Shown one piece after another: positions 1 through 59,930 of a stretch of DNA of 64,000 nt (positions are counted from its first letter, which is position 1; each line of letters starts with the position of its first letter). The position numbers were made by a program, and so were the translations under genes. The notes beneath the pieces were generated by a model. That model did no database searches, was not told the origin of the DNA, and saw only the letters and a program-made list of their open reading frames with translations. Where the stretch lies: positions 96,001 through 160,000 of IMG/VR virus record IMGVR_UViG_3300018430_000021; one strand, given 5' to 3'. This stretch comes from a virus. Lineage: Duplodnaviria; Caudoviricetes.

Positions 1-427
1 CAGGAATTGGTTTTTCGTAAATGCACATATCCAAATCATAGAGATAATCGATAGGTTCTTTCTGCATCAAATCACTAAGAACATTAGGGTCGATAAGCGT
101 CTGAGAAGAACCGATGAAGCTACAGTTATGATTTATCAAACCGTTAGGAGTTGAATATTCTTTTCCGTCAACTTCAACCGGTGTAATAACTGTCTGAGCT
201 TCATTAAGTAAAGTTATATTCTTTACTGTACTTTTTCCAAATTCAGTATTTTCAACTTCTTGACCAACATATAAAGAATTTGCTTCTACAAATCCTTTTT
301 CTGTTTTTAACTTATGGTCGATTGAGCATTTTAATGTTGTATTATCAAATTCGATAAGTACAGTTTTTGCGAGCTTCTTCATGAAGCCCTTAAAAGTTTT
401 AAATTCATTACCGCATAATATTTTCAT
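1..427 (-). CDS. terL: C-terminal split-intein fragment (101 aa) fused to the C-terminal (nuclease) part of terminase large subunit; runs off the window edge
   Basis: Manual translation from ATG 427: MKILCGNEFKTFKGFMKKLAKTVLIEFDNTTLKCSIDHKLKTEKGFVEANSLYVGQEVENTEFGKSTVKNITLLNEAQTVITPVEVDGKEYSTPNGLINHN|CSFIGSSQTLIDPNVL...IYEKPIP. It has a block-B-like CSIDH, a terminal HN and a +1 Cys. The extein FIGSSQTLI resembles the T4-like TerL linker. Own late promoter at 453-460 and an AAGGT RBS. Confidence 0.9.
   Translation of the reverse strand, partial: MKILCGNEFKTFKGFMKKLAKTVLIEFDNTTLKCSIDHKLKTEKGFVEANSLYVGQEVENTEFGKSTVKNITLLNEAQTVITPVEVDGKEYSTPNGLINHNCSFIGSSQTLIDPNVLSDLMQKEPIDYLYDLDMCIYEKPIP
125..427 (-). 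mobile_element. IntC fragment of an atypically split TerL intein
   Basis: Ends ...GLINHN immediately before Cys (124-122); 101 aa; no endonuclease domain. Confidence 0.88.
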
Positions 428-452
428 AGTTTACCTTTTACAGTTGCTTCTA

Positions 453-460
453 TATTTATA
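453..460 (-). promoter_or_regulatory. T4-type late promoter (TATAAATA) for the terL-C gene
   Basis: tatttata on + strand, 25 nt upstream of ATG 427. Confidence 0.8.
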
Positions 461-486
461 AACCCGGTCTTTTGAACCGGGTTTTT
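460..486. terminator. Intrinsic terminator hairpin after regA
   Basis: aaacccggt-cttttga-accgggttt. Confidence 0.7.
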
Positions 487-488
487 GA

Positions 489-902
489 TTAATCGAATGA
501 ATTTATTAAGTTGCTTGTATGGAATTTTTTAACTTTCATAAATTTATCAGCATCAGCATGTTTTACTATTTCTACTTTCATATTGTGCGGCTCGATTTCT
601 TCTGGATTTACGATTTTTATCATGTTCCATTGTGCGAGCAAGAACGCTATTCGGTTTCTACGCTCGATGTCTTCCAATGAAACATTACCAAATCCATGAT
701 AGCCGCTTTTATCTGTACTGATAGTAAATAACTGCTTAAAGTGTGCCAGATAATATGTTCCAAACTGTTCAAACAAGTGGCATGACTGATAGATTATTTT
801 CTTTTTGTAGTCGACTATTCCAATACGTGAAAGTGTCTCTTCAATAACCCACTTATCCACCAGCAACTTGACTTCCAATAATTTGTTTGTTGGTCTTGTC
901 AT
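489..902 (-). CDS. regA: RegA translational repressor
   Basis: ETLSRIGI...KIIYQSCHL...YYLAHFKQL...RRNRIAFLLAQWNMIKIV matches T4 RegA motifs. Confidence 0.92.
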   Translation of the reverse strand: MTRPTNKLLEVKLLVDKWVIEETLSRIGIVDYKKKIIYQSCHLFEQFGTYYLAHFKQLFTISTDKSGYHGFGNVSLEDIERRNRIAFLLAQWNMIKIVNPEEIEPHNMKVEIVKHADADKFMKVKKFHTSNLINSFD

Positions 903-1327
903 TAGTATTCCTCTGGTTTCCAGTCAAAGTCCTTGAGTTCCTTATCAAAAAATTTACCAGCCAAATAATCGGTGTCAAGTTCATCGCTCACTTCACTTAA
1001 GAAAGAATCCATAAGGATATTCTTTACTTTCGTATATCTTACAAGGTCTCTTTCCGTAAGCTTAGCAAAGCCGTAATCACTATAACCGTGTTCTCTATAA
1101 ACATCTGCGATTTTCTGCTTCAGTTCTGAGATATTGATAAATTTCTTGTTGTAAATCAAATACTTGACATTGTTAATTTCACGTGCTGTCCATGTTTCAG
1201 GATTGCACTTCGCAACAGTATCTTCAATAGTATCTTCGGCCTGAACAGGCTTAATAACAGTACGTTTAACCAATTCATCCGTGCTCTTATTTACCTGTCC
1301 ATTAACATATTCCGAAAAACTGCTCAT
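902..1327 (-). CDS. hypothetical protein (N-terminus MSSFSEYV resembles a T4 capsid-targeting sequence)
   Basis: 141-aa ORF abutting regA. Confidence 0.7.
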   Translation of the reverse strand: MSSFSEYVNGQVNKSTDELVKRTVIKPVQAEDTIEDTVAKCNPETWTAREINNVKYLIYNKKFINISELKQKIADVYREHGYSDYGFAKLTERDLVRYTKVKNILMDSFLSEVSDELDTDYLAGKFFDKELKDFDWKPEEY

Positions 1328-1334
1328 ATCTTAT

Positions 1335-2129
1335 TTATACCGATTTTGGCAAGAAGAACTGCGGAACGAATGCAATCGGGAGCGTAACTTCTTCTTCGCA
1401 AATAGGACACTTGAAAATAGCATACGGATAAGCATTGAAGATATATGGATCCAAATCATTAGTAAGCTTACTGAAATCAACAGCGTCAAGATTCAAGATA
1501 TAGCGATATGCCTGAATCAAAGTCAACGACTTACCATTGAGTTCCTTGAAATATGCTGCCATATCAAGAACATCCGGAAGCAAGTCTTCAACAATTTGCT
1601 CGTTGGTCTTGAGTTTGTTAATTTCTGTTTCTGTAGAAATAGTCGGGAATTCAATCTTTACCTTATCCTTGCCTACTTCGAAATATTCTGGAAGTTCCTT
1701 GTCAAGATACTGTACTTTCAAGTTCTTAAGCTGATAGTCAAATGTAGCGATGGTTTCGCAACTGTTACATTTTCCACGAAGCTTAAACGGAGCGTCGTTA
1801 TAAGTAAATGCACGAAGATAGAAAATAAGCCAAAGCTTATCGCCTACAAGAATCTTATTTGGGTCAATATTGAACAAACAAGACTTAAGAACATTATTGA
1901 TAACTGACATAATATTCTTTTCGTCAATACTTGCAAGATTTCTTACATTAAGAGTCGAAAGTTTCTTAATATAAATATCTTCCGTATAATAACGGCCGCG
2001 AGAAGGCATTAAAGTCTTGTCCAGCAATACTGCATTACTCGGAATTGCGTTCTGTAACTGTGCCAAAACTTCACCGAGATTTCCATTGTTTATGTTTGAT
2101 AAATCTATTGGTTCTGATTTAGAAGCCAT
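1335..2129 (-). CDS. baseplate hub assembly protein, gp26-like
   Basis: MPSRGRYY, FYLRAFTY, two CxxC pairs (CNSC, CPIC) and a C-terminal FF; late promoter at 2158-2165. Confidence 0.65.
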   Translation of the reverse strand: MASKSEPIDLSNINNGNLGEVLAQLQNAIPSNAVLLDKTLMPSRGRYYTEDIYIKKLSTLNVRNLASIDEKNIMSVINNVLKSCLFNIDPNKILVGDKLWLIFYLRAFTYNDAPFKLRGKCNSCETIATFDYQLKNLKVQYLDKELPEYFEVGKDKVKIEFPTISTETEINKLKTNEQIVEDLLPDVLDMAAYFKELNGKSLTLIQAYRYILNLDAVDFSKLTNDLDPYIFNAYPYAIFKCPICEEEVTLPIAFVPQFFLPKSV

Positions 2130-2166
2130 TTTTCACCTCATAATTAAATTAACACTATATTTATAT

Positions 2167-3642
2167 TTATGCTTGCTTTCTTAAACGATAAATCTTATAT
2201 TTACCGCCCTTACTTGAACCGTTGATAATGTAATTACCGCTACGTACATATTCGCCCTGTACTTGATTTTTAGAATCTCCAGTAGATTCTGCGGTTTTAA
2301 CAACAGTCTTAGTAGAAAGACTAGAAACATCCTGGTCAATAAACAAGATATGGTCTCTGCTCTGGTCCTTACCAGAACCACCAGTAGTAGTTGCACGTAA
2401 TGCAATATCGCCACGTTTTAATTCCATACCTTCTTCAACTTCGACTTCTTCGTATAATTCAGGGTGTTCAATCATATATTTCTGAATTTCACGTGTATTA
2501 AGACGCTTCTTGTCGGTTGCATAATTCATAATGCTCTTGTCAACAGCCGCAAGAATAGGAGTAGCAAATCCGGAACAGTCAATACCTTTAGTTTTGTCTC
2601 CGTTCCAAGAACGATCCTTGAATTCCATGCTTGTCGTATCAACATAGTCCTGATGACCATATACAAGACCTTCAGATTTACTAATCGACTTCATTTCTTC
2701 AATCTTAGAAACGAGAAGACCAGTATCGCCATTAGAAGAAGATGCACCCGTTACATTCAAAGTATTTACACTAGCAAGCTGTCTATCAATTTCTAGGATT
2801 TCATCGACGCTTCCATTATTCTTTATCAATTCACTACGCTTCTTAAACAAATCTAACTGTTTTTCAATAGAAGCATATTCTTCATTATTCGAATTTAAAC
2901 CAAGAGATTGAGCTTGGCTTAAACGTTCAGAAAGATTCATCTGAATAGCATTTAATTCGGATTGTGTTAACGGACGTTGAGTAGTCAATGCGTTTGCTTT
3001 ATTCTGATGAATTGTAGCAGCATTTTTATTATATTCTTCCTGAGTTCTCGAATTAAGTATATCGTCTTTAAATGTTTCAGGATCAGGAAGTGAAGAATGT
3101 ACTTCTCCGATTTCTTCTGCAATAGAATTTAATTTATAACGAACTACAAATTCTGCTTCTACTTCAATAGGATTACCGAAGTTTAAGTTTGAAAAATTCG
3201 GAGAGCTAAGTCTCTTTAAATGACAAGCATAGATATTGGAAACAACCGTATTTCTCATAGATTGGTCTAATTCGTCAATCTTTATTTTAATAATTTTTGG
3301 AGCACAGTTATTCCATAAATTTGCTTCCATATCTGCATTTTCTATATTGTTAAATAGAAAACCGTTGAGAAAATAAGTAACACTCATCTTATCGGTTTCC
3401 ATAAAAACAATCTTCAATGTAGACTGACCGAAATCGAAAATAGGAATTACATATTGTGTATTACCGAATCTCTGTCTATTTTCCGTATTCATATTCCAAA
3501 TCGGAAGTTCTACAGATTTAACGTAATATGTCAAGGATTCGATTTCTTCTGCACCTTTATTGTAGAAGAAAGTAACTTTAAAACGATATGCGATATGCGG
3601 TTTAATCGTTTTATTAAAGCTATATACATTCAATAATCCCAT
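2167..3642 (-). CDS. tail-tube-like (gp19/gp48/gp54 fold) N-domain fused to a C-terminal NlpC/P60-like peptidase
   Basis: N-terminal YRFKVTF...VKSVELP...LKIVFMET...YACHL is tube-like. C-terminal YG...GIDCSGF...GDI...DHILF is NlpC/P60-like. Confidence 0.7.
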   Translation of the reverse strand: MGLLNVYSFNKTIKPHIAYRFKVTFFYNKGAEEIESLTYYVKSVELPIWNMNTENRQRFGNTQYVIPIFDFGQSTLKIVFMETDKMSVTYFLNGFLFNNIENADMEANLWNNCAPKIIKIKIDELDQSMRNTVVSNIYACHLKRLSSPNFSNLNFGNPIEVEAEFVVRYKLNSIAEEIGEVHSSLPDPETFKDDILNSRTQEEYNKNAATIHQNKANALTTQRPLTQSELNAIQMNLSERLSQAQSLGLNSNNEEYASIEKQLDLFKKRSELIKNNGSVDEILEIDRQLASVNTLNVTGASSSNGDTGLLVSKIEEMKSISKSEGLVYGHQDYVDTTSMEFKDRSWNGDKTKGIDCSGFATPILAAVDKSIMNYATDKKRLNTREIQKYMIEHPELYEEVEVEEGMELKRGDIALRATTTGGSGKDQSRDHILFIDQDVSSLSTKTVVKTAESTGDSKNQVQGEYVRSGNYIINGSSKGGKYKIYRLRKQA

Positions 3643-3660
3643 GCTATATTTATAAATGAA

Positions 3661-3688
3661 AAAAGGAACACCAAACGGTGTTCCCTTT
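3661..3688. terminator. intrinsic terminator hairpin
   Basis: ggaacacc-aaac-ggtgttcc with flanking A/T runs. Confidence 0.75.
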
Positions 3689-3705
3689 AAATTTTCGGAA
3701 TTAAC

Positions 3706-4191
3706 CTATTCTTTTATGAGTTCATATCCGTTTCTTTCAAGGATAGCCTTGGCTTCCATGAATTTGTTTCCATGTGAACGTTCTTTGTCTTGTTTCTTTG
3801 CACATGCTGGACATATGCATTCTTTTTTGTTGGTAAAATCACAGTCGTCATCACCCTTGATAACCTGACCGCATTTCTTACACTTTCTGAATTTTCCTTT
3901 TCCATTAAATGATTCAGCCTGTAAGTCTGCTTCATAGTCGAATTCATCATTTTTAAGAGTATCTTCAACTGTAGGTTCCTTACGTGTGAAGATGTGCATC
4001 ATGTCGATAATAAGTGCACCGAATTCATCTTCGATTTCATCATATGTACTGTAAACATTATCGGCAATGTACTGGATGCATTCGCTGGTAGTACAAGGAG
4101 CGTCAAACTTCTTACAGTGTTCGATATATTCCTTGACCTGACGGATAACCTCAGGTTCAAGATCTGCTGCAGATTCAATAATTCTTTTCAT
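3706..4191 (-). CDS. hypothetical protein with Zn-ribbon (CKKC...CPAC); candidate head-internal protein
   Basis: GAGG RBS; late promoter at 4207-4214; C-terminal EAKAILERNGYELIKE tag. Confidence 0.7.
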   Translation of the reverse strand: MKRIIESAADLEPEVIRQVKEYIEHCKKFDAPCTTSECIQYIADNVYSTYDEIEDEFGALIIDMMHIFTRKEPTVEDTLKNDEFDYEADLQAESFNGKGKFRKCKKCGQVIKGDDDCDFTNKKECICPACAKKQDKERSHGNKFMEAKAILERNGYELIKE

Positions 4192-4246
4192 TTTTAACCT
4201 CTTTCTTATTTATATAAATATTCAGTTAAGCAAATTGTGAGGTGAT

Positions 4247-4936
4247 ATGAAAATAGCCGGATTAGACTTGTCTGTGACAAGTAGTGGAATTATTATTGAA
4301 GAACTGGACGATAAATTTGATATTGTGAACCTTGAACGTCACGGGTTTACAACAGTTCAAAAAAATGCTATATTAGAAGGTATCGAGCTTTATCGATATG
4401 AAGATTACCGTAATACATACCAACGTTACACAGCTCTTCAGAATAAGATTCTTGACTGGTGTAAGGATTGCGAGTATATCGGAGTAGAAGCATACGCTAT
4501 TTCTCGAGGACAAAATGGTAAGGTTTTCGACCTTGCCGAATATGAAGGTTATATTAAACAGGAGTTATTCAGACAGGGCAAAAAATTACGATTCTATCCG
4601 CCAAACCAGAATAAGAAGATATTCACCGGTTATGGTAAAGCCGATAAAATCAGAATGAAAAACGAAGTAGTCGACAGAAACGAAAAGAAGAGTTATGGCA
4701 ATATTCTTTTGAATATTTCAGATCTTCCGCCGGTTAAAAACGGTAAGAAAGGTACACCTCCTACTTCTGATATTATTGATGCATTTTCATTGGCCGAAAG
4801 TTTAAGACTTGAATTAAAGCTTAAATTCGGTGTAGAAAAGATAGATGACCAGCCAGATTATATTAAAGAAGTATTTGTAAAGTCAACAGAAGAACATCCT
4901 CTCGGATTATTGAATACTGATTTTATCTATAAATAA
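4247..4936 (+). CDS. RuvC-like Holliday junction resolvase / RNase H-fold nuclease
   Basis: IAGLDLS, GVEAY, TGYGKADK and DIIDAF motifs; GAGG RBS; TATAAATA at 4213-4220. Confidence 0.8.
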   Translation: MKIAGLDLSVTSSGIIIEELDDKFDIVNLERHGFTTVQKNAILEGIELYRYEDYRNTYQRYTALQNKILDWCKDCEYIGVEAYAISRGQNGKVFDLAEYEGYIKQELFRQGKKLRFYPPNQNKKIFTGYGKADKIRMKNEVVDRNEKKSYGNILLNISDLPPVKNGKKGTPPTSDIIDAFSLAESLRLELKLKFGVEKIDDQPDYIKEVFVKSTEEHPLGLLNTDFIYK

Positions 4937-4950
4937 TACAGAGGTTTGTT

Positions 4951-5436
4951 ATGGCAGAATATTTAAAAGAAGCACTTGAAATTCTCAAGGAAAACGGTTA
5001 TATTGTTGAAACTTTCAATACTATCGGCGATTCCGACAATGATATAGACGGTGACCGTTATGACGGAAGACCACTTAAAGTTACTGTCGGCGGCGAATAT
5101 ACTGGAACAGACTACGAAGATTGGATTGGTACAGTACGTGATGCTGTTTGGGATTGCTGCTGCGGCTACGATATTCCAGTTGAACAGTTCGACCAGTTCA
5201 TGGAAGAACATACCGGTGACATCGAAGACGCTTGGATTGTCAAGAAATGGCCTAAGGAATTCGGTAGATCCCTATTCAGCAAGTATTTCGACGAATTTGA
5301 TATTGCTGGTGAAGAACAAGAAAATTTTCAGCCGATTGAAGATGTAAAACCTGATAAGTTCCAACGTAACAAGAATAAATTTAACCGTAATTCTGGAAAG
5401 CGTTCACATCATAGCTTTGATGAATTTGATGATTAA
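4951..5436 (+). CDS. hypothetical acidic protein; candidate head-internal protein
   Basis: TATAAATA at 4928-4935; GAGG RBS; N-terminal EALEILKENGY tag. Confidence 0.7.
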   Translation: MAEYLKEALEILKENGYIVETFNTIGDSDNDIDGDRYDGRPLKVTVGGEYTGTDYEDWIGTVRDAVWDCCCGYDIPVEQFDQFMEEHTGDIEDAWIVKKWPKEFGRSLFSKYFDEFDIAGEEQENFQPIEDVKPDKFQRNKNKFNRNSGKRSHHSFDEFDD

Positions 5437-5450
5437 TAAGGAAAAATAAA

Positions 5451-5918
5451 ATGGTAAGTAAAATATTTTTGGATGTCGATGGCGTTCTTGCCGACTTCAG
5501 AGGCCAGTGCGAACGATACAACTGTATCGAAGGTACTAAAGTCGATTGGAATGTCATTCATAGTGCAGGCCCTAAGTTCTGGGAAGAAATCGATTGGACC
5601 GCAGAAGGAAAACAGGTCCTTGATTATCTGAAAAAGCTTACTACCGAGTTGGAAATCGAATTGTATATCCTTACAGCAGTTCGTGCTCAGGATGGCAAGG
5701 TTGGTCGAATGAACTGGCTCAGGAAGAATGTCGGTCTTGACAAGCATCACTTGTTGATTGTCAACGGCGGTAAGGAAAAAACTTACTATGCAGAACCTGA
5801 CGCTTTGTTAATCGACGACTACGAAAAGAACTGTGCACTATTTAATGAAGCTGGTGGTCAGGTAATTCAGTTCAAGTCATTTGACCAAATGAAAAATAAA
5901 CTTGAAGACATGATTTAA
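5451..5918 (+). CDS. HAD-superfamily 5'(3')-deoxyribonucleotidase-like protein
   Basis: IFLDVDGVLADF, ILTA, K and LIDD HAD motifs. Confidence 0.85.
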   Translation: MVSKIFLDVDGVLADFRGQCERYNCIEGTKVDWNVIHSAGPKFWEEIDWTAEGKQVLDYLKKLTTELEIELYILTAVRAQDGKVGRMNWLRKNVGLDKHHLLIVNGGKEKTYYAEPDALLIDDYEKNCALFNEAGGQVIQFKSFDQMKNKLEDMI

Positions 5919-5923
5919 AAAAT

Positions 5924-5949
5924 AAAGGAGATTTTAAAATCTCCTTTTT
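5924..5949. terminator. bidirectional terminator between convergent genes
   Basis: aaaggagattt-ta-aaatctccttt. Confidence 0.75.
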
Positions 5950-5953
5950 AATT

Positions 5954-6316
5954 TTATAATTTCTTAATTAACAATACTTCGTCTATCAGTTTTCGATACC
6001 CGTAATAATCGATTACCGTTTCAATAACGTCATCGTCGACATATTTGATAAGCGCCGGAAGAACATCCTCGGTAAGGAAAACATCCTTCGTAATAAAACG
6101 AATAAGACGGTCTTTCGTATTATCGTCGTCGTCAAGTTCGGTCGGTAAATCGTTTACAAGACAATAGTCGACATAAAAATCTTCTGCGAGCTGGTCGGAA
6201 AGTAAACCAACAATCTGTAATGCAATCTTCTTGCCATATTCAGGCTTAGCAAGTACGAACTTCTGAAGTCTTTCCTTCCACGGCATAGTTGATTCAATTA
6301 AATATTTTCTAGTCAT
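5954..6316 (-). CDS. hypothetical protein
   Basis: 120-aa ORF with GAGG RBS and an N-terminal LIE motif. Confidence 0.7.
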   Translation of the reverse strand: MTRKYLIESTMPWKERLQKFVLAKPEYGKKIALQIVGLLSDQLAEDFYVDYCLVNDLPTELDDDDNTKDRLIRFITKDVFLTEDVLPALIKYVDDDVIETVIDYYGYRKLIDEVLLIKKL

Positions 6317-6332
6317 TTTAAACCTCTACTTA

Positions 6333-6344
6333 TATTTATAAATA
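6333..6344. promoter_or_regulatory. palindromic bidirectional late promoter TATTTATAAATA
   Basis: Perfect 12-bp palindrome with TATAAATA on both strands, between divergent genes. Confidence 0.75.
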
Positions 6345-6348
6345 TGTT

Positions 6349-7215
6349 ATGGCAACAGATTACGCTTCAGAATTCACAAAATTATTTAAAAGTGGTAGTT
6401 GTTCAGTTAGAAATAAGGACTGGAACGCCCCGAAATATTTTGATAGCCAGAATAACGACTGTTATGCTGCTGAAGCCGCTCTAATGTCATCTTTAACTTC
6501 CGAGGCTTTCGGTAATTTCGGTTTCCAGGTACAATATTATATCAAGGATATTTCGACCAAGCAGGATAGACTTTACGGTGAAGATCCTATCGAGAACGTC
6601 AAGAGAAGATTCACTCTCAAGATGTATGCCGAACAGTTACCGGCATATCAGAAGACTTATACTCTACAAGGTATGACATACGAAGAAGTCATAACTTGTA
6701 TGTGTACTATCCAGCATTTTATGGAAGCTTCGAGATACGAATACGGCACAAACCAGATAAAGTACAATTCGGAAGTTCCTAAAATAGGCGATATTATTTA
6801 CCTTGAATATTCTAACCTTTTCTATGAAGTAATCAACGTCAAAACGTTCGCTGAAGGAACATCGTTCTTATCCAGCCCGATTACGTATACGTTCACATTG
6901 AGAATCTGGAGAAACAACCACCAGAATATTGACGAGAACAACGAGAACTCGGACAATATGGACACATTACGTGCATTTACGGAACTTGACGAAATTTTCG
7001 ATATTGACGAAAAGACTTCAGAAGGTCATGCAACTTCTGAAGTAGGTTCTAAGAGTGATATTCTTGAAATCAATACTGACTTACCGAAAGATAAGACAGA
7101 TGAAGATAAGCCTAAGGATAGTGTTTATAGTCATATCGCATACGAATATGAAGATCCGCAAGCAGAATATACGGATGATAAGTCCAAATATTATGACCCG
7201 TTTGCTGGTTGGTAA
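6349..7215 (+). CDS. neck / head-closure protein gp14-like (copy 1)
   Basis: VQYY...DRLYGEDP...F and PKIGDIIY...FYEV motifs of the T4 gp14 family. Confidence 0.75.
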   Translation: MATDYASEFTKLFKSGSCSVRNKDWNAPKYFDSQNNDCYAAEAALMSSLTSEAFGNFGFQVQYYIKDISTKQDRLYGEDPIENVKRRFTLKMYAEQLPAYQKTYTLQGMTYEEVITCMCTIQHFMEASRYEYGTNQIKYNSEVPKIGDIIYLEYSNLFYEVINVKTFAEGTSFLSSPITYTFTLRIWRNNHQNIDENNENSDNMDTLRAFTELDEIFDIDEKTSEGHATSEVGSKSDILEINTDLPKDKTDEDKPKDSVYSHIAYEYEDPQAEYTDDKSKYYDPFAGW

Positions 7216-7929
7216 TTAGAAATCTGTCGGTATTTTAGACAGAGCGTAAGCGCCGTTATCGAACGACTTTTTCTGCGGGACAATCTTAAGATTTCCGTTA
7301 GGTTCACGCTTGTTAATATGATATGTCCAGATGTCTGAGTGGAATGTAAGTTTACATTTCACTACCTCTTCGCTATTATAATCCAAATCGGATTCAAAGT
7401 CAAGGTTCTTAAGGACACAGTTTTCAAAATGGAATTCGCCGTTGAAATTACTGTTCTGGTTGGACTCGCCAGTTTTATCCTTCATCATTACTATGATTTT
7501 ATCGATAGTAACATAATCCTTTGTACCTACACGAGACGAATAGATTTCATGTTCCGGGTGAACTGGATAAATCGTAGACTTATTGTAACTTACACCGTCT
7601 GAAGCCATCAAGTCCTTAAGACAACGGGCATTAATCTGGGCGATATTATATAACTGGTTATTATCGCTCGGTTCTGCACGAACGGTAAATCTGAAACTAA
7701 TGTCTGTTCCATAGTTTCTTACAATCGGGAAAGTCTTTTCAGAACCGAAATACTTTTTTGTAACGGTGACAGTTTCAAACTTCGGTAATGTAGCGGTTTC
7801 AGCTATAAGGTGGTCGTCGTCAATCTTTGACGTACCGGTTGTCTTATAGAAAAATACATGGAATAACCAGCCTGGTTGCGGATCAGACATGTTAAAAAAG
7901 TTTTCGTTAATAAAAATACTGTTTGGCAT
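7216..7929 (-). CDS. tail-tube-like protein (gp19/gp54 family)
   Basis: WLFHVFF...ATLPKFE...KYFGSEKTFP...FHFENC...LDY...LTF parallels the tube protein at 49430. Confidence 0.65.
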   Translation of the reverse strand: MPNSIFINENFFNMSDPQPGWLFHVFFYKTTGTSKIDDDHLIAETATLPKFETVTVTKKYFGSEKTFPIVRNYGTDISFRFTVRAEPSDNNQLYNIAQINARCLKDLMASDGVSYNKSTIYPVHPEHEIYSSRVGTKDYVTIDKIIVMMKDKTGESNQNSNFNGEFHFENCVLKNLDFESDLDYNSEEVVKCKLTFHSDIWTYHINKREPNGNLKIVPQKKSFDNGAYALSKIPTDF

Positions 7930-7938
7930 AAGTTATTC

Positions 7939-8694
7939 CTAAAATGTTCTATCATTATACTTCGTATTGAAATCCATCCAGTTATACGTAAATATCGCAT
8001 CACGTTGAATAGTATCATCGCTTTCATAACTATATGAAATACTTGGAATAGATACTAGTTTACATTCGTAGAACTTGTATTGCTTGAAATAATCTCCCTT
8101 GTCACCGTCGTTAAGTCCCATAGAATTTGTAGACGGATCTCTATACTGGTTGAATATCTTGACTGAGATTATTCCTGGTTTCGTGTTTATATTCGAAATA
8201 TTTGAACTACCGTTTGCCTGAGGAGTAAGTGTATCTCCTTTTACTCGTGTATCTGTACCGTAAGAATATGCAGCTGCATTGTTAGGTATCGAATTCGAAG
8301 TATAGTAGAACTTGTTTAACGCTTGTATATGATAAATCTTTTCAAGAATGGTAGTTACTCTATATAAACTGTCTTCATTGAATTTAAACGTGATTGTACC
8401 TGAATTTTCTGCACGTGTTGGAATCTTGAAATTTAAACCACCATAATATAAGTCTGCCGTATTTATCTTTCTATCGGGTATACTTACTGAAACTACTGCT
8501 TTATTCAATAGTTCCATATCGTTTTCTGTTATTAATGAGTTATTATCACTCTTGAAATTCATAAAATCATTGAAGACTGCTTTAAAAGTCCAGCCTAAAG
8601 CAGGTGGTTGATTATAAAAATCATTATCCCAGATAGATCTTAGATTTCCACGAGTTGGTCTACCCATTTTTGTAGTTAAATCGTATACACCCAT
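7939..8694 (-). CDS. tail-tube-like protein (gp19/gp54 family)
   Basis: VSVSIPDR...YYGG..KIP...GTITFKFNED...YKFYEC...FTY. Confidence 0.7.
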   Translation of the reverse strand: MGVYDLTTKMGRPTRGNLRSIWDNDFYNQPPALGWTFKAVFNDFMNFKSDNNSLITENDMELLNKAVVSVSIPDRKINTADLYYGGLNFKIPTRAENSGTITFKFNEDSLYRVTTILEKIYHIQALNKFYYTSNSIPNNAAAYSYGTDTRVKGDTLTPQANGSSNISNINTKPGIISVKIFNQYRDPSTNSMGLNDGDKGDYFKQYKFYECKLVSIPSISYSYESDDTIQRDAIFTYNWMDFNTKYNDRTF

Positions 8695-52162: not shown

Positions 52163-52186
52163 TTACGAGAATTCCAAAAAAATTCA

Positions 52187-52194
52187 TATAAATA
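52187..52194 (+). promoter_or_regulatory. late promoter of the major capsid gene
   Basis: TATAAATA followed by an AGGAG RBS. Confidence 0.8.
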
Positions 52195-52227
52195 AAGTAT
52201 AAACGATTTTTATAGGAGAAACAATAA

Positions 52228-53547
52228 ATGAAAGTTACACAATCACAAGCTACTATGGTAGATACTTGGGCCAAGGCACCGGGCGGACTTTCCGTTGCTG
52301 GTATCAAGGACTCCCTTGTACGTTATAATACCGCACGTCTTCTCGAAAACCAGAAGACTAAGAATCTCGGTGCAGAACTTCTCACTGAAGATTTCACTCA
52401 GGGTGTAGGTGCTCCGCTTGGTCTCGACCAGGGTATTCCTCACGGTGGTGATGCTAAGGGCGTTTTCGCTCCGATTTCTCTCGCACTCGTCCGTCGTGTG
52501 TTCCCGCAGCTCTTCGCTAACGTTCTCGTTGGTGTTCAGCCGTTGATTGGTCCTGTCGGTCTTGCATTCGCACTCCGTTACATTTATAAGACAAATAACC
52601 CGAACGAACTCGTTGAAGCCGCATGGAAGGCAGTTCCTCGCTTCTCTGGTTATACCGGTTCTACCGCTAATACCAGTGGCGAATGGGATGCTGGTACCGG
52701 CGTTGACACTCAGTCCGCTGAAGGTTGGAAGATCACTGGCCCGACTTTTGGTTCTGATGACCCGTCTGTAAGCCGTAAGATGCCGGAAATCGGCCTTATG
52801 CTCAGCCGTCAGTCCATCGTTGCTAAGAGCCGTAAGCTCGCTGCTTCCTTCTCTCTTGAATCTGCTGCCGACATTAAGGCTATGCAGGGTATCGAAATGA
52901 TGACTGAAATGATTAACGTCCTCCAGGCTGAAATGACTGCTGAAATGGACCGTGAAACTATCGGTCGTTGTAAGGCTCTTTGCACACCGCGCGTGTTCAA
53001 CAAGTCTACAAAGACTCTTCAGGAAAACGATGCATTCATCGGCCGTAACTCCCAGGAACGTTTCGGTATGATTATTACCCACATCATGAAGGGTGTAAAC
53101 GACATCCGTACTGCTACTCGTCGTGGCGCTGCTAACATTGCAGTTGTTTCCCCGGACGTTGCTACTGTTCTTCAGTGCGCTAATCCTTGGTTCACCAAGA
53201 TTGCTCACGAAGTTAACGGTTCTGCTGTTACTCCGGAAATGGGTACTTTGAACGGTGTTGTTAAGGTCTTCTGTGACCAGTACGCTGTTGACGAATTCGG
53301 TCAGCACGATAACGGTGAAGTTCTCCTCGCATACAAGGGCTCTAGCCTCTATGATGCTGGTGTTATCTTCTGCCCGTACGTAACCGGTGTTGTCAACCAG
53401 GCTATTGACCCGAATGACTTCAGCCCTCGCGTTGGTATTATGAGCCGCTACGGCTTTGCTCATAATATGTTGGGCGCTGAAAACTACTACCGTCTCTTGA
53501 AGTTCAACGGCCTCTTCGCAGAAGCTGGTGAAGACCTCGAATGGTAA
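52228..53547 (+). CDS. major capsid protein gp23
   Basis: LLENQ, LVRRVFP...GVQP, AKSRKL, CPYV and F.PR.G.MSRYG motifs. Confidence 0.96.
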   Translation: MKVTQSQATMVDTWAKAPGGLSVAGIKDSLVRYNTARLLENQKTKNLGAELLTEDFTQGVGAPLGLDQGIPHGGDAKGVFAPISLALVRRVFPQLFANVLVGVQPLIGPVGLAFALRYIYKTNNPNELVEAAWKAVPRFSGYTGSTANTSGEWDAGTGVDTQSAEGWKITGPTFGSDDPSVSRKMPEIGLMLSRQSIVAKSRKLAASFSLESAADIKAMQGIEMMTEMINVLQAEMTAEMDRETIGRCKALCTPRVFNKSTKTLQENDAFIGRNSQERFGMIITHIMKGVNDIRTATRRGAANIAVVSPDVATVLQCANPWFTKIAHEVNGSAVTPEMGTLNGVVKVFCDQYAVDEFGQHDNGEVLLAYKGSSLYDAGVIFCPYVTGVVNQAIDPNDFSPRVGIMSRYGFAHNMLGAENYYRLLKFNGLFAEAGEDLEW

Positions 53548-53572
53548 TTTCGGACAATTTGAAATAACATTT

Positions 53573-53603
53573 AAAAATGCAGGTGTAAAAACCTGCATTT
53601 TTT
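53573..53603 (+). terminator. terminator after the MCP gene
   Basis: aaaaatgcaggt-gtaaa-acctgcattttt. Confidence 0.8.
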
Positions 53604-53698
53604 ATTATAATTAAACAATTTCTTCCGGAAAAATTCTATAAATAAAATAGGTGTGAAGGAATTAATCTTCACATAGGAAAAATTAAGGAGAAATAATC

Positions 53699-54079
53699 AT
53701 GAAACGTAGAAATGATATTTACAACGTTGGTAACGATTACGATCAGGAAGTTTCTGCATACTTCGTAACTAATGATGACGATGCTGCACTTTCTGCAAAT
53801 GTCCCTGGTTACAAGGCATATTCTGATGGTTTGTACCACTTCACTAAGAAGCCGGCTTATGAACTTTCTGGTGGTGCTGACGCACTTAACAAGCGTGTTA
53901 TTAATAACCTTCCGCAGTCTCAGTGGGCTGTTCCTGAGTTCCTCAAGGATGCTGACCCGTCTGCAGCTTCTGCTTGGGCACCGATTAACGCTGGTTCTGC
54001 TGTTTTGAGCCCGGACTATGCTACTGTTGAAAATCCTCAGGTTTTCGACTGGGCTAATGCTCCGATCACCAAGAAGTAA
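53699..54079 (+). CDS. small, probably abundant virion protein (candidate capsid decoration)
   Basis: Own late promoter at 53637-53644, AAGGAG RBS, MCP-like codon bias, adjacent to the MCP. Confidence 0.6.
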   Translation: MKRRNDIYNVGNDYDQEVSAYFVTNDDDAALSANVPGYKAYSDGLYHFTKKPAYELSGGADALNKRVINNLPQSQWAVPEFLKDADPSAASAWAPINAGSAVLSPDYATVENPQVFDWANAPITKK

Positions 54080-54103
54080 TCGTAACTGATTAGCAAACAA
54101 TTT

Positions 54104-54132
54104 AAAAAGAGGTTCCTTTGGGACCTCTTTTT
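54104..54132. terminator. bidirectional terminator
   Basis: aaaaagaggttcc-tttg-ggacctcttttt (imperfect stem). Confidence 0.7.
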
Positions 54133-54415
54133 AATCTAATACAGAAAGTATATTTTCGACTTCTTGATTTTTGAAATGAACGTAAGCTTTTCCAGCTTTT
54201 TCCAGTTCATCTTCAAATTCGTCTTTATTGTATTTAAAATTTTTGAAATATTTATTATCACCGTCTTGATAACTGAATCTACATAAAGGTTCAGAACCAT
54301 AGAAAGAGAAAGTTCCGACAATAAAATCCTCAGCCATACCGAAATAAACCATATGGTCAGACATAGGATTGAAGTAAATCCTATGCGATTTGAGCATTTT
54401 AATTACTTCGTCCAT
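54131..54415 (-). CDS. hypothetical protein
   Basis: CATAAATA-N4-ATG start. Confidence 0.65.
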   Translation of the reverse strand: MDEVIKMLKSHRIYFNPMSDHMVYFGMAEDFIVGTFSFYGSEPLCRFSYQDGDNKYFKNFKYNKDEFEDELEKAGKAYVHFKNQEVENILSVLD

Positions 54416-54476
54416 TTAGTATTTATGAAAAAACCAGACCTCGGGGCCTGGTTTGAATTTTTATTTGAAAATTCGA

Positions 54477-55043
54477 TTAGTGAAGAGCCATACCTTCGCC
54501 AGCGAACATTGCATTTGAAATGGTGAAAAGTGCATTAGTTTCAGTTTTACACTTCTTCATACGAATTGCAAACTTATTGTAATATTCAGGACTTACACCC
54601 TTGCCGATACATTCACGGACTTCTTCAAGGAATTCTGCGATTGCAGCCTGAAGACCGACCTTGGCAGAAAGAGTTAAGAAATATGCGTTATTAAGATACT
54701 TTTCGCAAATGCTTGTGAAGAGTGTACCTTCAGCAGTACCGAATCCTTCTTTGATTACTTTAAAACCGGCTTTTTCAGCAACTTCTTTAGCTTCTTCGAG
54801 TTTAGCCCAAGGCGGAACCTTGTCATCACCCTTTTTGCCTTCGTTGAGTTTAGCCCAAGGCGGAACCTTATCACCGTCTTTCTTACCTTCGTTGAGTTTG
54901 GCCCAAGGTGGAACCTTGTCTCCGTCCTTTTTGCCTTCATCGAGCTTAGCCCAAGGTGGAACCTTGTCATTGCCGCCTTTCTTGGTTCTAGCAACAGTAA
55001 ATCCATGTTCTTCGGCAATCTGTTTAGCTTCAAATAAGTTCAT
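54477..55043 (-). CDS. repeat-containing protein; candidate head-internal peptide precursor
   Basis: Four DKVPPWAKLxE repeats; AGGAG RBS. Confidence 0.75.
   Translation of the reverse strand: MNLFEAKQIAEEHGFTVARTKKGGNDKVPPWAKLDEGKKDGDKVPPWAKLNEGKKDGDKVPPWAKLNEGKKGDDKVPPWAKLEEAKEVAEKAGFKVIKEGFGTAEGTLFTSICEKYLNNAYFLTLSAKVGLQAAIAEFLEEVRECIGKGVSPEYYNKFAIRMKKCKTETNALFTISNAMFAGEGMALH
54792..54968 (-). repeat. 48-bp (16-aa) coding tandem repeat, about 3.7 copies
   Basis: gcccaagg(c/t)ggaacctt recurs every 48 nt, with third-position variation. Confidence 0.9.
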
Positions 55044-55092
55044 AAAATCTCCTTAAAATCTTTACTGTATTTATATTATTTATAAATATTTT

Positions 55093-56775
55093 ATGGCACT
55101 AGGCGATTTTAGAAAGATATTTGAGAAGACAGAAGTCATAAAACAAGCTACAGTAGAAGAAGTTAAAAAAGCATTTGAAAAGTTGCCAAATGCTAATATA
55201 CAGTATTCATTACCTGGTGAAAGAAAAGCTCGTAGAAGCGATGGTTTTGAACATTTAACAAAGACGGTTGACCTTTCAAAATATACAGTAATTGAATTTA
55301 CTGCTGAAAGAAATGCTGATGACGCAGGTATTACAAATAGCCGTTATAATATGAAACAAGTAAAGGCATTTATAAATTCACAAAACAATATAGAAGCTTA
55401 TGAAAAGAGCGTTTTGGAATTTTTAGGTGCAAATGCGTTAATGATTAAAAATAAGCCAGTAAAATCTGGTGAAATTGATATGTACCCATTAAATGTTGGG
55501 AATAAAGTTTTATATTCTACAGCACCTTGGTATTTACGTGGTCACGGTATTGCAGCAGCAATGCGTTCTACAAATACTGAAATTCAAGAAGCAGGTCAAG
55601 CAGTTGGTTTATTTACCGCTTATATGATGGATAGTAAAAGCGATGAAATTGACATTAGACATTTGAACTCTTTTGAAAATAGATTCCATTTTTCATTGTA
55701 TAATAATAAAAGGCGAGTAATGAATTTGCTTGAATGGTATATTTACAATTTCCATGGAGCAGTTGAAAAGTGTGTAGACGGTGGTGCTAAAGTATTTGCC
55801 GGATTACGTAATCCATTGACGATGCATCTTTCAGATATATCTTGTGAAGCCGGACATAAAATTGCAGAAAGCGGAATTGGTCCAAATATTCGTTCTGTAT
55901 TTAATGAACTGAATAAGAAACAAGAAAGAAAATTTAAAAATATAAACTCCTGGTGCCCTGCAGATATTGTAGTTTATGATGAAAGTTTGAAGAGAGAAAT
56001 GAAACCTTCTAACTTTGCTGATATTGATGAATATACTAAATGGCTTAATCGACAGACTGAAACAAACAGATTAAGACTTATTTCGTTGAAACTAAATACT
56101 TCCCGTTGGGACAACGTTATTTCACGAACAAGCGTTTCGGATAAAAAGAGAATGCCTGAAATATTGGATAAGAAATGGGAAGTTAACAAAGGTAATATTT
56201 ACCTTTATGTTCATCTAAATGAAGATGGAATTAAAATAACAGATAAAAATCAAGGTAATGTTATTAGGCTTAAGTTTACGGTTTTCGATAATGATAAAGG
56301 CGCAAGTATAGAAGCTGATTATCTTAATACTAAGCAAGTTCATTTTAATTTTGAACGTGAAATTCTTGTAGAGAATTTTAATCGTAAAGAAAATACTCAG
56401 ACTATGCTTGGTAAGGCTCGAGATACGTTAAACTATTATTTGGCCAAGAAAAAGATTGATACTATTGATGACGTTAATTTTGTATGGCCGGATCAGTTTA
56501 AAGAATTGTTACATACAGATGCAGTAGACGCGTTTAATGCAAGAACGACAACCAAACCATCATTGAAACGAAATACTGAAAAACTTGTATTGCGTGATGA
56601 AATTATGAAACTATATTCTGACTGGTTGAACAAGATGCGTAAGTTCTGTTTGTATAGAGGAGAACAGGAAGTAAATAAGTCTATAGATGAGTTTATTCTT
56701 TATACGATATATGCCGGAAAGAAAGAAAATTTCCAGGATATGGATTTCTTCCCTAAATATTATAAAATTGGATAA
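55093..56775 (+). CDS. hypothetical protein, possible PD-(D/E)xK-like fold
   Basis: QE...WCPADIVV...LISLK arrangement; TATAAATA-N4-ATG start. Confidence 0.6.
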   Translation: MALGDFRKIFEKTEVIKQATVEEVKKAFEKLPNANIQYSLPGERKARRSDGFEHLTKTVDLSKYTVIEFTAERNADDAGITNSRYNMKQVKAFINSQNNIEAYEKSVLEFLGANALMIKNKPVKSGEIDMYPLNVGNKVLYSTAPWYLRGHGIAAAMRSTNTEIQEAGQAVGLFTAYMMDSKSDEIDIRHLNSFENRFHFSLYNNKRRVMNLLEWYIYNFHGAVEKCVDGGAKVFAGLRNPLTMHLSDISCEAGHKIAESGIGPNIRSVFNELNKKQERKFKNINSWCPADIVVYDESLKREMKPSNFADIDEYTKWLNRQTETNRLRLISLKLNTSRWDNVISRTSVSDKKRMPEILDKKWEVNKGNIYLYVHLNEDGIKITDKNQGNVIRLKFTVFDNDKGASIEADYLNTKQVHFNFEREILVENFNRKENTQTMLGKARDTLNYYLAKKKIDTIDDVNFVWPDQFKELLHTDAVDAFNARTTTKPSLKRNTEKLVLRDEIMKLYSDWLNKMRKFCLYRGEQEVNKSIDEFILYTIYAGKKENFQDMDFFPKYYKIG

Positions 56776-56779
56776 AAAT

Positions 56780-56807
56780 AAAAACCAGGTTATTCACCTG
56801 GTTTTTT
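56780..56807. terminator. bidirectional terminator
   Basis: aaaaaccaggt-tattc-acctggttttt. Confidence 0.8.
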
Positions 56808-56822
56808 AAATTATAATCAAGA

Positions 56823-58091
56823 TTACATCTTGCTGTACTTGATTCCCTTTGCGTCGAGGAATGTAGTAATCTTTGCAATATCCTTTTCAGACATGCCAGT
56901 GATTGTGACAGATTCACCTTCATCGTCGATAGCAATATCAGCATTCGAACGAGAATTAGTGAGCGTAGCCTTTCTGACCATTGCATTGGTAAGCTTAGCA
57001 CCAATTCCGAAAGAAGCACTGTCAAATGCGAGAGTAACGGGAACCTTCTTACCAGAAGAAGAGGCAGCAGCTGTAGCCGGAGATTCACCTTTGGCAATCT
57101 TGTCAACAACAGCAGTTACACCGCCAGATTTTTGATTACCGTTCGGAGTCAAAAGACTTACAGTATCGACCTTATCGTTTTCGATAACGCCCATATTCTT
57201 AAGTTTGTCAACCATGACAGTTGCAAATTCATTGTGGCTGCTTATACCGCAAAGCATGGAACCATCTTCCAAAGTCTTTGTCGGGAATTCTGTGCTAGAG
57301 CCCCAACCGATTTTCTTTGTATTGGTATGTCCGTTTTCGTCGGTAACTTCAGTTTCGACACCGCCATACCAGTTACATTTGCTAATGAAGGCGCGAGCTT
57401 CCTTAACCTTGTCGGCAGGAACTGTGAAAACGTAACCCTGAGGCTGAATATAGCCAGGAGTTCCCTTACCACCCTTCTTGGAACCGTCACGAAGAACGGA
57501 AGTAGGAGCGAGGTCACTATTCTTCAAGATTTCACCGAATTGTTCGAGCTGAGATCCCTTTACAACGAGAGCGTCATGAGCTTCATTCTTCCAGTAAACC
57601 ATTGCATAACGAACGCAGTTTTGAGCAAGGTCATGAAGTGTTTTTGCAATCTTGGAGAAGTTCGGAGTACCAGTTTCCAAGCTCTTCATGAGATCCTTGT
57701 CGGTCTTGATTGTCATGTTGATTTCATCCTTACCGTCGATTGCATACACGATAGTAAATGGACGAATATCGGTAATGGTTGTAGAACCATGAGCAATTTC
57801 AGATTTTAAGCGACCTTCATAGAAAAGAGCCAACTGTGTCGGACGTTGACCCTGAACGCCGTTGTTATTTGTAGACCAGTTCTTGAAACGAATTGTCGAG
57901 AAGTAGTTACCAATATGTGACGGAATAAGATTACCGTCATTTGTATGTGCACTATTGAAATGAATACTTACGGCCCATTTCATTACCTTAACCCAGTTGG
58001 GTTCATGGGTCATGGCTTCCATGATATTATCGTAAGCTTCATCCTGAGTAAACACGATATTGCTGTCATCAGTTTTGAATAAATGTTCCAT
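56823..58091 (-). CDS. hypothetical protein
   Basis: 422 aa; late promoter at 58121-58128. Confidence 0.7.
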   Translation of the reverse strand: MEHLFKTDDSNIVFTQDEAYDNIMEAMTHEPNWVKVMKWAVSIHFNSAHTNDGNLIPSHIGNYFSTIRFKNWSTNNNGVQGQRPTQLALFYEGRLKSEIAHGSTTITDIRPFTIVYAIDGKDEINMTIKTDKDLMKSLETGTPNFSKIAKTLHDLAQNCVRYAMVYWKNEAHDALVVKGSQLEQFGEILKNSDLAPTSVLRDGSKKGGKGTPGYIQPQGYVFTVPADKVKEARAFISKCNWYGGVETEVTDENGHTNTKKIGWGSSTEFPTKTLEDGSMLCGISSHNEFATVMVDKLKNMGVIENDKVDTVSLLTPNGNQKSGGVTAVVDKIAKGESPATAAASSSGKKVPVTLAFDSASFGIGAKLTNAMVRKATLTNSRSNADIAIDDEGESVTITGMSEKDIAKITTFLDAKGIKYSKM

Positions 58092-58206
58092 TTTAAATCC
58101 CTTTTTATGATTTTATATATTATTTATAAGGCAAATCCGCATTAAAATCTTCGGAAAAATTGTAAAAATTCTATAAATATAGTAAACAACATTGGAGATT
58201 TTAATT

Positions 58207-58875
58207 ATGGAAGCAAAAAAGCTATTGTGCGAAGAAGCTTGCGCCGAAGCAAAATCAGTGCTTGAAGACGCTGGCAATAATATGAAGACTATGTATATCA
58301 GTGGTCCGTTCATGATGGCTGAAGAAGTAAACCGTAACGGTCGTACTTATTCTAAGGCAATTATTGAACGTGAAGTTAACAAGTTCCAGAAGCTCATCGA
58401 ATCCCGTGAAGCTCTTGGAGAATTGAACCATCCTGAGACAATCGAAATTAACCCTCGTGAAGCTGCAATTATGATTACAGACCTTCACATGGACGGAAAC
58501 CTCGCAATGGGTAAGGCAAAGGTTTTGCATACTCCAAACGGTAAGCTCCTTGAATCCCTTTTGCTCGACGGTGTTCGTATGGGTGTTTCTTCTCGTGGTA
58601 CCGGTAATTTGACAGAAGGCAATATGGTTGCAGACGACTATAATCTCGTAACTATCGACTCTGTTTATATGCCATCCGCTCAGGTCGCTTATACTGACGC
58701 AATGTACGAATCTGTACAGTACGTTTCTAAGTGGGTTCTTAATGAAAATACTGGACTTTTCATTGAACAGCGTGAAAAGATTATCAACGGTCAGAAGGCT
58801 TTCAATAAGGAAGTCGATAAGAAGGGTTCTAAGGCCATTGTAGAAGCTCTTAGAGAGTTCATTAAGACATTCTAA
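58207..58875 (+). CDS. prohead core protease gp21
   Basis: ISGPFMMAEEVNRNGRTY, ALGELNHP, TPNG and GVSSRGTG motifs; GGAG RBS before ATG 58207. Confidence 0.95.
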   Translation: MEAKKLLCEEACAEAKSVLEDAGNNMKTMYISGPFMMAEEVNRNGRTYSKAIIEREVNKFQKLIESREALGELNHPETIEINPREAAIMITDLHMDGNLAMGKAKVLHTPNGKLLESLLLDGVRMGVSSRGTGNLTEGNMVADDYNLVTIDSVYMPSAQVAYTDAMYESVQYVSKWVLNENTGLFIEQREKIINGQKAFNKEVDKKGSKAIVEALREFIKTF

Positions 58876-58894
58876 TAAAAGATACTAGGTAAAC

Positions 58895-58924
58895 AAATAA
58901 GGGTCCCAGAGGCCCTTATTTTTG
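58895..58924 (+). terminator. terminator between the protease and terL-N genes
   Basis: aaataagggtc-ccaga-ggcccttattttt. Confidence 0.7.
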
Positions 58925-58970
58925 CAATTATTCAGACATAAATAAGATATAAGCTATGAAGGAGTAAACT

Positions 58971-59930
58971 ATGTTCCAAGGAACCGACACACTTAGAGGC
59001 CATAATGAAAATGTGGAAATGACCCAGGAGCAGTGGGCGGAATACGAGAAGTGTTCAAAAGATATTTTCCATTTTGCTAATTACTTTTATATTTTGACAG
59101 AAGACGGTGAATTGCCGATTAAGTTGAGAGAATATCAAGAACGTCTCATCAAGGTAATTTGCGGAACTTATTTCATGCGTAACGATGACGGAACCATAAT
59201 GACGGATTCCAAGGGTGAAAAAGTTTTAAGAAATAACAGAATTATTACCGTGGGTCGTCAGGCTGGTAAGACTACTATCGCGACGCTTTATATTTTGTGG
59301 TATGCGCTTTTCCATAAGGACAAGACTATTGCTGTTCTGGCTAACAAGGAATCACAAGCTATTGAAATTATGCTTCGTATTCGTGCAGCAGTTCTGAGAC
59401 TTCCTATGTGGTTACAGCAGGGTATCAATCCGGACCGCGGTGGCTGGTCTCAGAAATCAATAGGATTTGATAACGGTTGCAAAATTTTCTGTGCTGCTAG
59501 TTCGTCTTCTGCTATTCGTGGTAAATCCGTTGACTTGATGCTCGTGGACGAATTTGCTCACTTGCCGGAACAGGATGCTGACGATTTTATGATGTCGGTT
59601 ATTCCGACACAGGCTTCTCGTAAGACAAGTATGTTGATTCTTATTTCAACGCCTAAGGGTATGAACCAGTTCTATAAGATTTGGCAGAGTGCTCTTGCTG
59701 GTATCAATACCTTTGTTCCTGCAAAGATTGCATGGAATGAAATCGACGGTCGTGATGAAACATTCAGGAAGAAAGTTATTCGTGACCATGGTATTAAGTT
59801 CTTTAACCAGGAATATGCTTGCTTGGATCCGAATGAAGAAATTACTGTCCAGGACGAGGCCACAGGTATTGTTTTAACTGACAAAATTGGCAAAATTTTC
59901 GAATTATGGCAAGACGGTTTCCTTAAATAA
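58971..59930 (+). CDS. terL: terminase large subunit ATPase half (283 aa) fused to a 36-aa N-terminal split-intein fragment
   Basis: LREYQ, Walker A GRQAGKTT, Walker B LVDEFA, ISTPKG, then FFNQEYA|CLDPNEEITV...GFLK-stop; no nuclease domain. Confidence 0.92.
   Translation: MFQGTDTLRGHNENVEMTQEQWAEYEKCSKDIFHFANYFYILTEDGELPIKLREYQERLIKVICGTYFMRNDDGTIMTDSKGEKVLRNNRIITVGRQAGKTTIATLYILWYALFHKDKTIAVLANKESQAIEIMLRIRAAVLRLPMWLQQGINPDRGGWSQKSIGFDNGCKIFCAASSSSAIRGKSVDLMLVDEFAHLPEQDADDFMMSVIPTQASRKTSMLILISTPKGMNQFYKIWQSALAGINTFVPAKIAWNEIDGRDETFRKKVIRDHGIKFFNQEYACLDPNEEITVQDEATGIVLTDKIGKIFELWQDGFLK
59820..59927 (+). mobile_element. IntN fragment of an atypically split TerL intein
   Basis: CLDPNEEITVQDEATGIVLTDKIGKIFELWQDGFLK: block-A-like CL...I.V followed by I..I(F/Y), then a stop. 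Confidence 0.85.

Follow-up and report, generated by a model that had tools for sequence, protein, structure and literature searches.

The large terminase subunit (TerL) is an enzyme indispensable to tailed phages and a standard marker for phage finding and classification. In 2009, Dassa and colleagues (PMC2677866) described the Lake Gatun terminase locus as a 'fractured gene', in which a free-standing endonuclease lies between adjacent halves. Among the characterised atypical TerL inteins, the N-terminal (IntN) and C-terminal (IntC) fragments have 25 and 104 amino acids (aa) in AceL-TerL, 37 and 115 aa in GOS-TerL, and 30 and 104 aa in Cat (PMC11766414). In another study the Jug huge gut phages, T4-like phages of 360-402 kb from animal guts, were reported to carry terL in pieces, with ruminant huge phages among their TerL relatives (PMC12880540). 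Here we have analysed a stretch of 64,000 nucleotides (nt), the window, which comprises bases 96001-160000 of the 291,102-bp IMG/VR virus record IMGVR_UViG_3300018430_000021 and in which terL consists of two unlinked genes, one for the ATPase half with a terminal IntN (TerL-N) and one for the nuclease half preceded by an IntC (TerL-C). Both the intein type and the point at which it is split have been in the literature since 2009; the novelty lies in the dispersal of the terL halves throughout a lineage, unlinked and without an endonuclease. A literature search for dispersed or unlinked split terL halves, incomplete in its coverage, found no description of them. A rumen and gut origin of the lineage is suggested by record names and the literature (PMC12880540).

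Like AceL, GOS and Cat, the element studied here resides in a gp17-type TerL, is inserted in the linker and is broken after block A, with an IntN of 36 aa (25-37 aa in those inteins) and an IntC of 101 aa (104-122 aa). Cys1 and Cys+1 are found as in AceL and Cat and block B has S-x-x-H in common, whereas sequence identity is only ~26% and block F has Thr in place of Asp. The insertion site is also that of the fractured terL of cultured T4-like phages (QE[HYM]x, then C[AS][EF].G[ST]), being the same as in Serratia phage 92A1, Vibrio phage K469 and P0008, and phage 92A1 has the same atypical split, with an IntN of 37 aa and an IntC of 111 aa. In the cultured phages, however, the terL halves are adjacent, on one strand and within gp16-gp17-gp18, in many cases with a putative homing endonuclease between them, while here TerL-C lies in a regA-TerL-C-gp26-gp55 module. 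In 92A1 and Yersinia phage MHG19 the order is TerL-N, a 236-aa open reading frame (ORF) and IntC-TerL-C; in K469 a long endonuclease-like tail is attached to the IntN, and IntC-TerL-C comes next; and in Vibrio phages VP-1 and Va1 two terminase genes lie side by side. A GIY-YIG-like character in these cultured-phage loci was judged by eye alone. Unlike the Lake Gatun gene, the halves described here are 45-59 kb apart and have no endonuclease, and the arrangement falls outside the definition of a fractured gene (adjacent halves on one strand with an endonuclease between them). The pieces of the Jug terL are adjacent, co-transcribed and rejoined as RNA via group I introns, whereas here the joining would take place at the protein level, from unlinked genes.

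Terminase halves and intein fragments

The original prediction placed a packaging ATPase followed by a 36-aa IntN on the plus strand of the window, and both its coordinates and its peptide proved correct. The TerL-N product matches Pfam Terminase_6N at 2e-17, the PHROG terminase large subunit family at 2.4e-46 and the ATPase domain of the T4 gp17 structures 3ezk/2o0h/3cpe at 1.5e-36, while a megablast of TerL-N against INPHARED gave no match. On the minus strand, the ORF starting at 427 encodes a 101-aa IntC followed by Cys+1, again with coordinates and peptide as predicted, and the sequence directly after IntC is CSFIGSSQTLID. The 626 nt left of the window were read by extension to genome 90001-97000 (L001), and it was confirmed that the ORF continues into an RNase H-like nuclease of the gp17/RB49 type: Terminase_6C matches TerL-C residues 148-299 at 1.3e-9, and the C-extein matches the RB49 nuclease domain 3c6a at 2.3e-19 and T4 gp17 residues ~356-560, the homology to 3c6a/3cpe taking in the 'VDC..G.G.DY' and 'HDDLV' segments. 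Both elements of a gp17-type terminase, the Walker A/B ATPase and the RNase H-like nuclease domain, are present across the two halves (Table 1).

When the exteins were joined in silico they gave a 532-aa protein that aligns gap-free at the junction with intact 547-549-aa T4-like TerLs (QEYA, then CSFIGSSQTLIDP, against QEFE-CEFLGSVDTLISP in the intact proteins), as expected from the earlier claim that the junction matches the T4-like TerL linker. The exteins align to gp17 up to residue ~339 and from residue ~356 (3ezk numbering), and the break therefore lies in the linker between ATPase and nuclease.

Table 1. Positions of the terminase halves, intein fragments and associated signals in the window
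Feature	Position	Strand	Details
TerL-C gene	start 427, 1053 nt to genome 95375 (genome 95375-96427 = L001:5375-6427)	-	350 aa; open at window edge
IntC	125-427	-	residues 1-101; block B CSIDH, end NGLINHN
TerL C-extein, start	1-124	-	Cys+1, SFIGSSQTLID...; continues left of the window into RNase H-like nuclease domain
TATAAATA, exact late-promoter motif	453-460	-	26 nt upstream of TerL-C ATG
Hairpin with T-run ending regA	~462-482		precedes TATAAATA of TerL-C
Terminator-like hairpin	~58900-58923		precedes CATAAATA of TerL-N
CATAAATA, one-mismatch late-promoter-like motif	58937-58944	+	upstream of TerL-N
TerL-N gene	58971-59930	+	319 aa; ends ...FFNQEYA, CLDPNEEITV...GFLK, stop
TerL N-extein, gp17-type packaging ATPase	58971-59819	+	283 aa; Walker A GRQAGKTT, Walker B DLMLVDEF
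IntN	59820-59930	+	36 codons 59820-59927 from Cys1 (CLDPNEEITV...GFLK), then stop codon

The predicted kinship with the atypical TerL inteins was borne out by profile and structure searches. A family profile of IntC, made from nine relatives, had as its best match in the PDB the Cat atypically split TerL intein (6dsl_B, 2.1e-5, positions 3-103/106), followed by the gp41-1, DnaX and VidaL inteins. An AlphaFold2 (AF2) model of IntC alone, with a predicted local distance difference test (pLDDT) value of 73 and the last 19 residues disordered, was matched by Foldseek with a probability of 1.00 to the gp41-1, VidaL, RecA and Cat inteins at template modelling (TM) scores of 0.5-0.6, and nearly all of the top-ranked matches were inteins or related Hint-type domains (bacterial intein-like, hedgehog). 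The disordered tail of the model would be as expected of a fragment awaiting its IntN. The NCBIfam intein models gave no match on TerL-N or TerL-C, a Pfam scan of both halves gave, as regards intein families, only a sub-threshold PT-HINT match, and the IntN profile found nothing meaningful in the PDB, the fragment being too short. A contiguous mini-intein is found at the same TerL site in the metagenomic TerL fragment P0025; IntN aligns to its residues 214-249 and IntC to its residues 250-353, and the 36 and 101 aa are exactly colinear with the unbroken intein, which supports the completeness of the split one, with nothing missing.

Cys1, the block A nucleophile, is invariant in five aligned relatives, as are the block A residues, and of the 120 best TerL-N cluster representatives at least 114 have it. 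In IntC, 40 columns are invariant across the nine relatives, in which block B (S35 and H38, an S-x-D-H form of T/S-x-x-H that aligns to S-D-N-H of CatC) and block G with the residues that follow (NGLINHN, then CSFIG) are likewise invariant. Cys1, S-x-D-H, HN and Cys+1 do not vary among relatives with 48-89% intein identity. At unsaturated synonymous divergence (dS), the ratio of nonsynonymous to synonymous divergence (dN/dS) was 0.06-0.17 for IntC, 0.02-0.05 for IntN and 0.01-0.05 for the exteins; the intein fragments are maintained by purifying selection and are not decaying.

We consider it probable that this T4-like phage of ~420 kb produces its terminase from two late genes with separate transcripts and completes it by trans-splicing of the protein. 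One gene would give the ATPase with its C-terminal 36-aa IntN, and the other, 58.5 kb off and on the opposite strand, the nuclease with the 101-aa IntC in front of it. Once both are translated, the short IntN would dock onto the partly folded IntC and complete the Hint fold, and class-1 protein trans-splicing via Cys1, the terminal His-Asn and Cys+1 would then ligate ...QEYA to CSFIGSS..., yielding a gp17-type TerL of 532 aa with its seam in the linker between ATPase and nuclease. The element itself would belong to the atypically split TerL inteins of the AceL/GOS/Cat type and occupy the site of the fractured terL of cultured phages; its homing endonuclease would have been lost in this lineage, and its C-half would have moved beside regA, gp26 and gp55 in a common ancestor. 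The genes, their homologies and conservation, the selection on them and the lack of any other nuclease are observed directly, while we infer that the fragments associate, splice covalently and are expressed together late.

Several findings weigh against this account. A single IntC shows weak similarity to solved inteins (E 0.07-0.4), and the family profile alone is significant. At the block-F position where Cat, P0008 and P0014 have Asp, IntC has an invariant Thr (T82, 'TPV'), and in the whole clade block F reads V-[IY]-T-P as against V-Y-D-[PL] in Cat, AceL-like and most other inteins. In class-1 inteins, loss of the block-F Asp could slow or alter catalysis. Finally, the promoter motif of TerL-N carries one mismatch in this genome. 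The occurrence of Thr throughout the clade would also suit the idea that the intein fragments act as a docking module only and hold ATPase and nuclease together as a non-covalent heterodimer with little or no splicing, for which a phage precedent is reported in PMC3045599, the non-covalent reassembly of a fragmented enzyme, NrdA of Aeh1. We regard docking without splicing as unlikely, as Cys1, the penultimate His, the terminal Asn and Cys+1 are all retained despite the divergence of the fragments, mere docking would not fix nucleophiles in the great majority of TerL-N clusters, and the nearest characterised relatives, AceL, GOS and Cat, do splice (PMC11766414).

Other TerLs and other relatives showed variations on the intein. 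Among the metagenomic TerLs found with IntC (P0006, P0020, P0033, P0014), some T4-like ones hold 3-4 related mini-inteins or split-intein ends within a single gene, at Walker A, Walker B and the linker, a sign of heavy intein traffic in TerL. One relative, at 67% TerL-N identity (L028:1091-1267, +), has a charged extension of ~23 aa behind the IntN, for a total of 59 aa after Cys1.

Dispersal of the halves

The halves had been predicted to lie about 59 kb apart on opposite strands; the genes are divergent, with start codons 58,543 nt apart. Hidden Markov models of IntN and IntC each found exactly one match in the 291-kb record, which also holds a single Terminase_6C domain. As the record is incomplete (linear, without terminal repeats and ~70% complete by CheckV estimate), a complete relative (G001) was brought in, a genome of 424,163 bp that has direct terminal repeats and an estimated completeness of 100%. 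In it TerL-N is found at 185.5 kb (+) and IntC-TerL-C at 239.8 kb (+), 53.4 kb apart, and no credible nuclease domain other than that of TerL-C was detected. A second Terminase_6C match in G001 (E 1.3e-3) was rejected, as it reads as a VWA-type protein beside a MoxR-like ATPase. In a third genome (G002) a distance of 45.3 kb separates TerL-C, at 8.3-9.3 kb (-), from TerL-N, which lies at 54.7 kb (+). Furthermore, TerL-C is absent from eight TerL-N loci, six of which share flanking genes with the window, and TerL-N is absent from all 18 TerL-C loci, the loci of both sets coming from different samples.

Metagenome-assembled records without terminal repeats, such as this one, invite the suspicion that the 59-kb separation is an assembly error or chimera and that the halves are truly adjacent. 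The chance of this is vanishingly small, given that a separation of 45-59 kb recurs in three independent large assemblies, one of them closed with terminal repeats, that the other half was never found at any of these loci, and that each half has its own terminator, promoter motif, ribosome-binding site, start and stop; the separation is thus real, as had been claimed, and an artefact is excluded for practical purposes. A DNA inversion that would join the halves was considered and rejected as unnecessary and geometrically implausible, because the two divergent genes have their 5' ends turned towards one another and a start and stop apiece. The relative orientation of the halves in G001 differs from that in the other two genomes (G000 and G002), indicating that rearrangements continued, yet the halves never rejoin.

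The split layout extends well beyond these genomes. In a survey of the 120 best TerL-N cluster representatives (52-99% identity, on contigs of up to 679 kb), all were of 218-359 aa and nearly all of 285-359 aa, and at least 114 end in a Cys1-initiated IntN of 30-39 aa (59 aa in two). Some 95 TerL-C clusters, at 41-94% identity and mostly of 340-400 aa, have the nuclease domain only and cover the query from its first residues, and full-length two-domain TerLs appeared in the TerL-C search only at or below ~42% identity. Relatives at 58% and 53% TerL-N identity (298- and 409-kb contigs) had no Terminase_6C closer than 10 kb to TerL-N. In TerL-C relatives at 41-46% identity no Terminase_6N was found within 10 kb, and the gp26-like and gp55-like genes are still downstream. 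The layout and its neighbours across the clade date the relocation to a deep ancestor of a large lineage.

A different reading is that the halves are not partners but relics, and that DNA is packaged by an ATPase-only TerL paralog with an unrecognised nuclease, or by an intact terL in the unsequenced part. The record is, as said, incomplete, and it does carry a second Terminase_6N gene. This paralog (genome 258,460-259,251, +; L003:1285-2076) has no intein, is 263 aa long with the Terminase_6N ATPase domain only, is 40% identical to TerL-N and stops exactly where the intein is inserted in TerL-N (FFNSEFS...). Its Walker A no longer has the Lys and its Walker B no longer has the catalytic Glu (GITT and DDF, here and in a 97% relative), and from its sequence it looks catalytically dead; nor can a protein with the ATPase domain only supply a nuclease. 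Its homolog in G001 retains GKTT, DE and a short linker stretch (TQFLGSVDG). With both halves and both intein fragments under strong purifying selection, the paralog lacking its key residues, no further Terminase_6C in the complete relative apart from the VWA-type match, and the split form the only form across the clade, we find it very improbable that the halves are relics, and the trans-spliced terminase is the reading we retain.

The original prediction noted no recognisable endonuclease beside either half, and a comparison of endonuclease families with the ORFs flanking both halves in this genome likewise gave no match. A 262-aa ORF after TerL-N was considered as a degenerate endonuclease and rejected, having neither a family match nor similarity to the Vsr-like ORF of a relative. 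The latter, a 329-aa ORF directly downstream of TerL-N on the 409-kb ENA contig at 53% TerL-N identity (L102:10901-11890, +), has a zinc-finger-like N-terminal region and a weakly Vsr- or restriction endonuclease-like C-terminus (Pfam Vsr E 0.003), and is a candidate free-standing 'Vsr-like' homing endonuclease, though no TerL-C is present within 10 kb. Its position after TerL-N is consistent with a fractured gene as the starting point, the halves of which later dispersed and the endonuclease of which was lost.

Expression signals and neighbouring genes

A T4-type late-promoter motif, TATAAATA, was counted 43 times in the window where 9 copies would be expected; it often stands shortly before an ORF, on either strand, which is the usual pattern of T4-type late promoters. 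It was previously suggested that each half has its own late promoter. For TerL-C this is supported, as the exact motif precedes the gene here and in most relatives too; for TerL-N the claim holds in part, with the inexact CATAAATA in this genome and an exact TATAAATA upstream of TerL-N in the more distant relatives L026, L086 and L087. We infer that both halves are late genes, and since both look late, the idea that the split serves temporal control is weakened. The start sequence said to be shared by the two genes, the 10-mer GTAAACTATG, is indeed present at both terminase starts, at 425-434 (-) and 58964-58973 (+), and nowhere else in the window (0.15 expected). As a conserved common regulatory signal, however, it was rejected, being confined to close relatives, and it may be a coincidence or a recent feature.

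The neighbourhood of TerL-C is stable. The gene order in the 18 TerL-C loci is gp26-like, orf141, regA, TerL-C, gp26-like, gp55-like sigma and glycosyltransferase-like. The two gp26-like genes, diverged baseplate-hub paralogs (Pfam T4_baseplate) at 1335-2129 (-) of the window and at L001:4467-5375 (-), bracket the segment of regA and TerL-C, and the bracketing is kept in all relatives examined. Two genes downstream of TerL-C lies a gp55-like late sigma factor gene (Sigma70_r2; L001:3674-4354, -). Further along, L001:2-1528 (-; genome ~90,002-91,528) encodes a protein of more than 509 aa that by eye looks like a phage-encoded GroEL-like chaperonin.

Implications of a dispersed terminase

An arrangement of this kind has been described outside the viruses: cyanobacterial dnaE-n and dnaE-c lie hundreds of kb apart on opposite strands, as reported by Wu, Hu and Liu in 1998. 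The DnaE case likewise concerns an essential enzyme encoded by two dispersed genes, joined by protein trans-splicing and split lineage-wide; it differs in belonging to a cellular genome, in a canonical break at the endonuclease site (long IntN, short IntC) and in its host protein.

Whether the splitting of the terminase has itself become a means of control is more speculative. It is conceivable, although we are doubtful, that trans-splicing is obligatory throughout the lineage with the halves dispersed since the common ancestor and each served by a late promoter of its own, in which case the arrangement may be more than a frozen accident and may set the stoichiometry of motor and nuclease or delay their coupling, with the ATPase-only paralog as a possible competitor or regulator of motor assembly.

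For practical work, the terminases of these huge phages will show up in annotation pipelines and TerL phylogenies as half-length proteins only. As a library of atypical split inteins for protein labelling and ligation, the lineage offers ~100 or more divergent short-IntN/long-IntC inteins in natural pairs. With TerL present only as two unlinked genes, the virus would depend entirely on trans-splicing of the protein, or at the least on assembly mediated by the intein, making this a viral counterpart of the cyanobacterial DnaE case and suggesting that loss of the endonuclease and scattering of the halves are compatible with long persistence of a 'fractured gene'.

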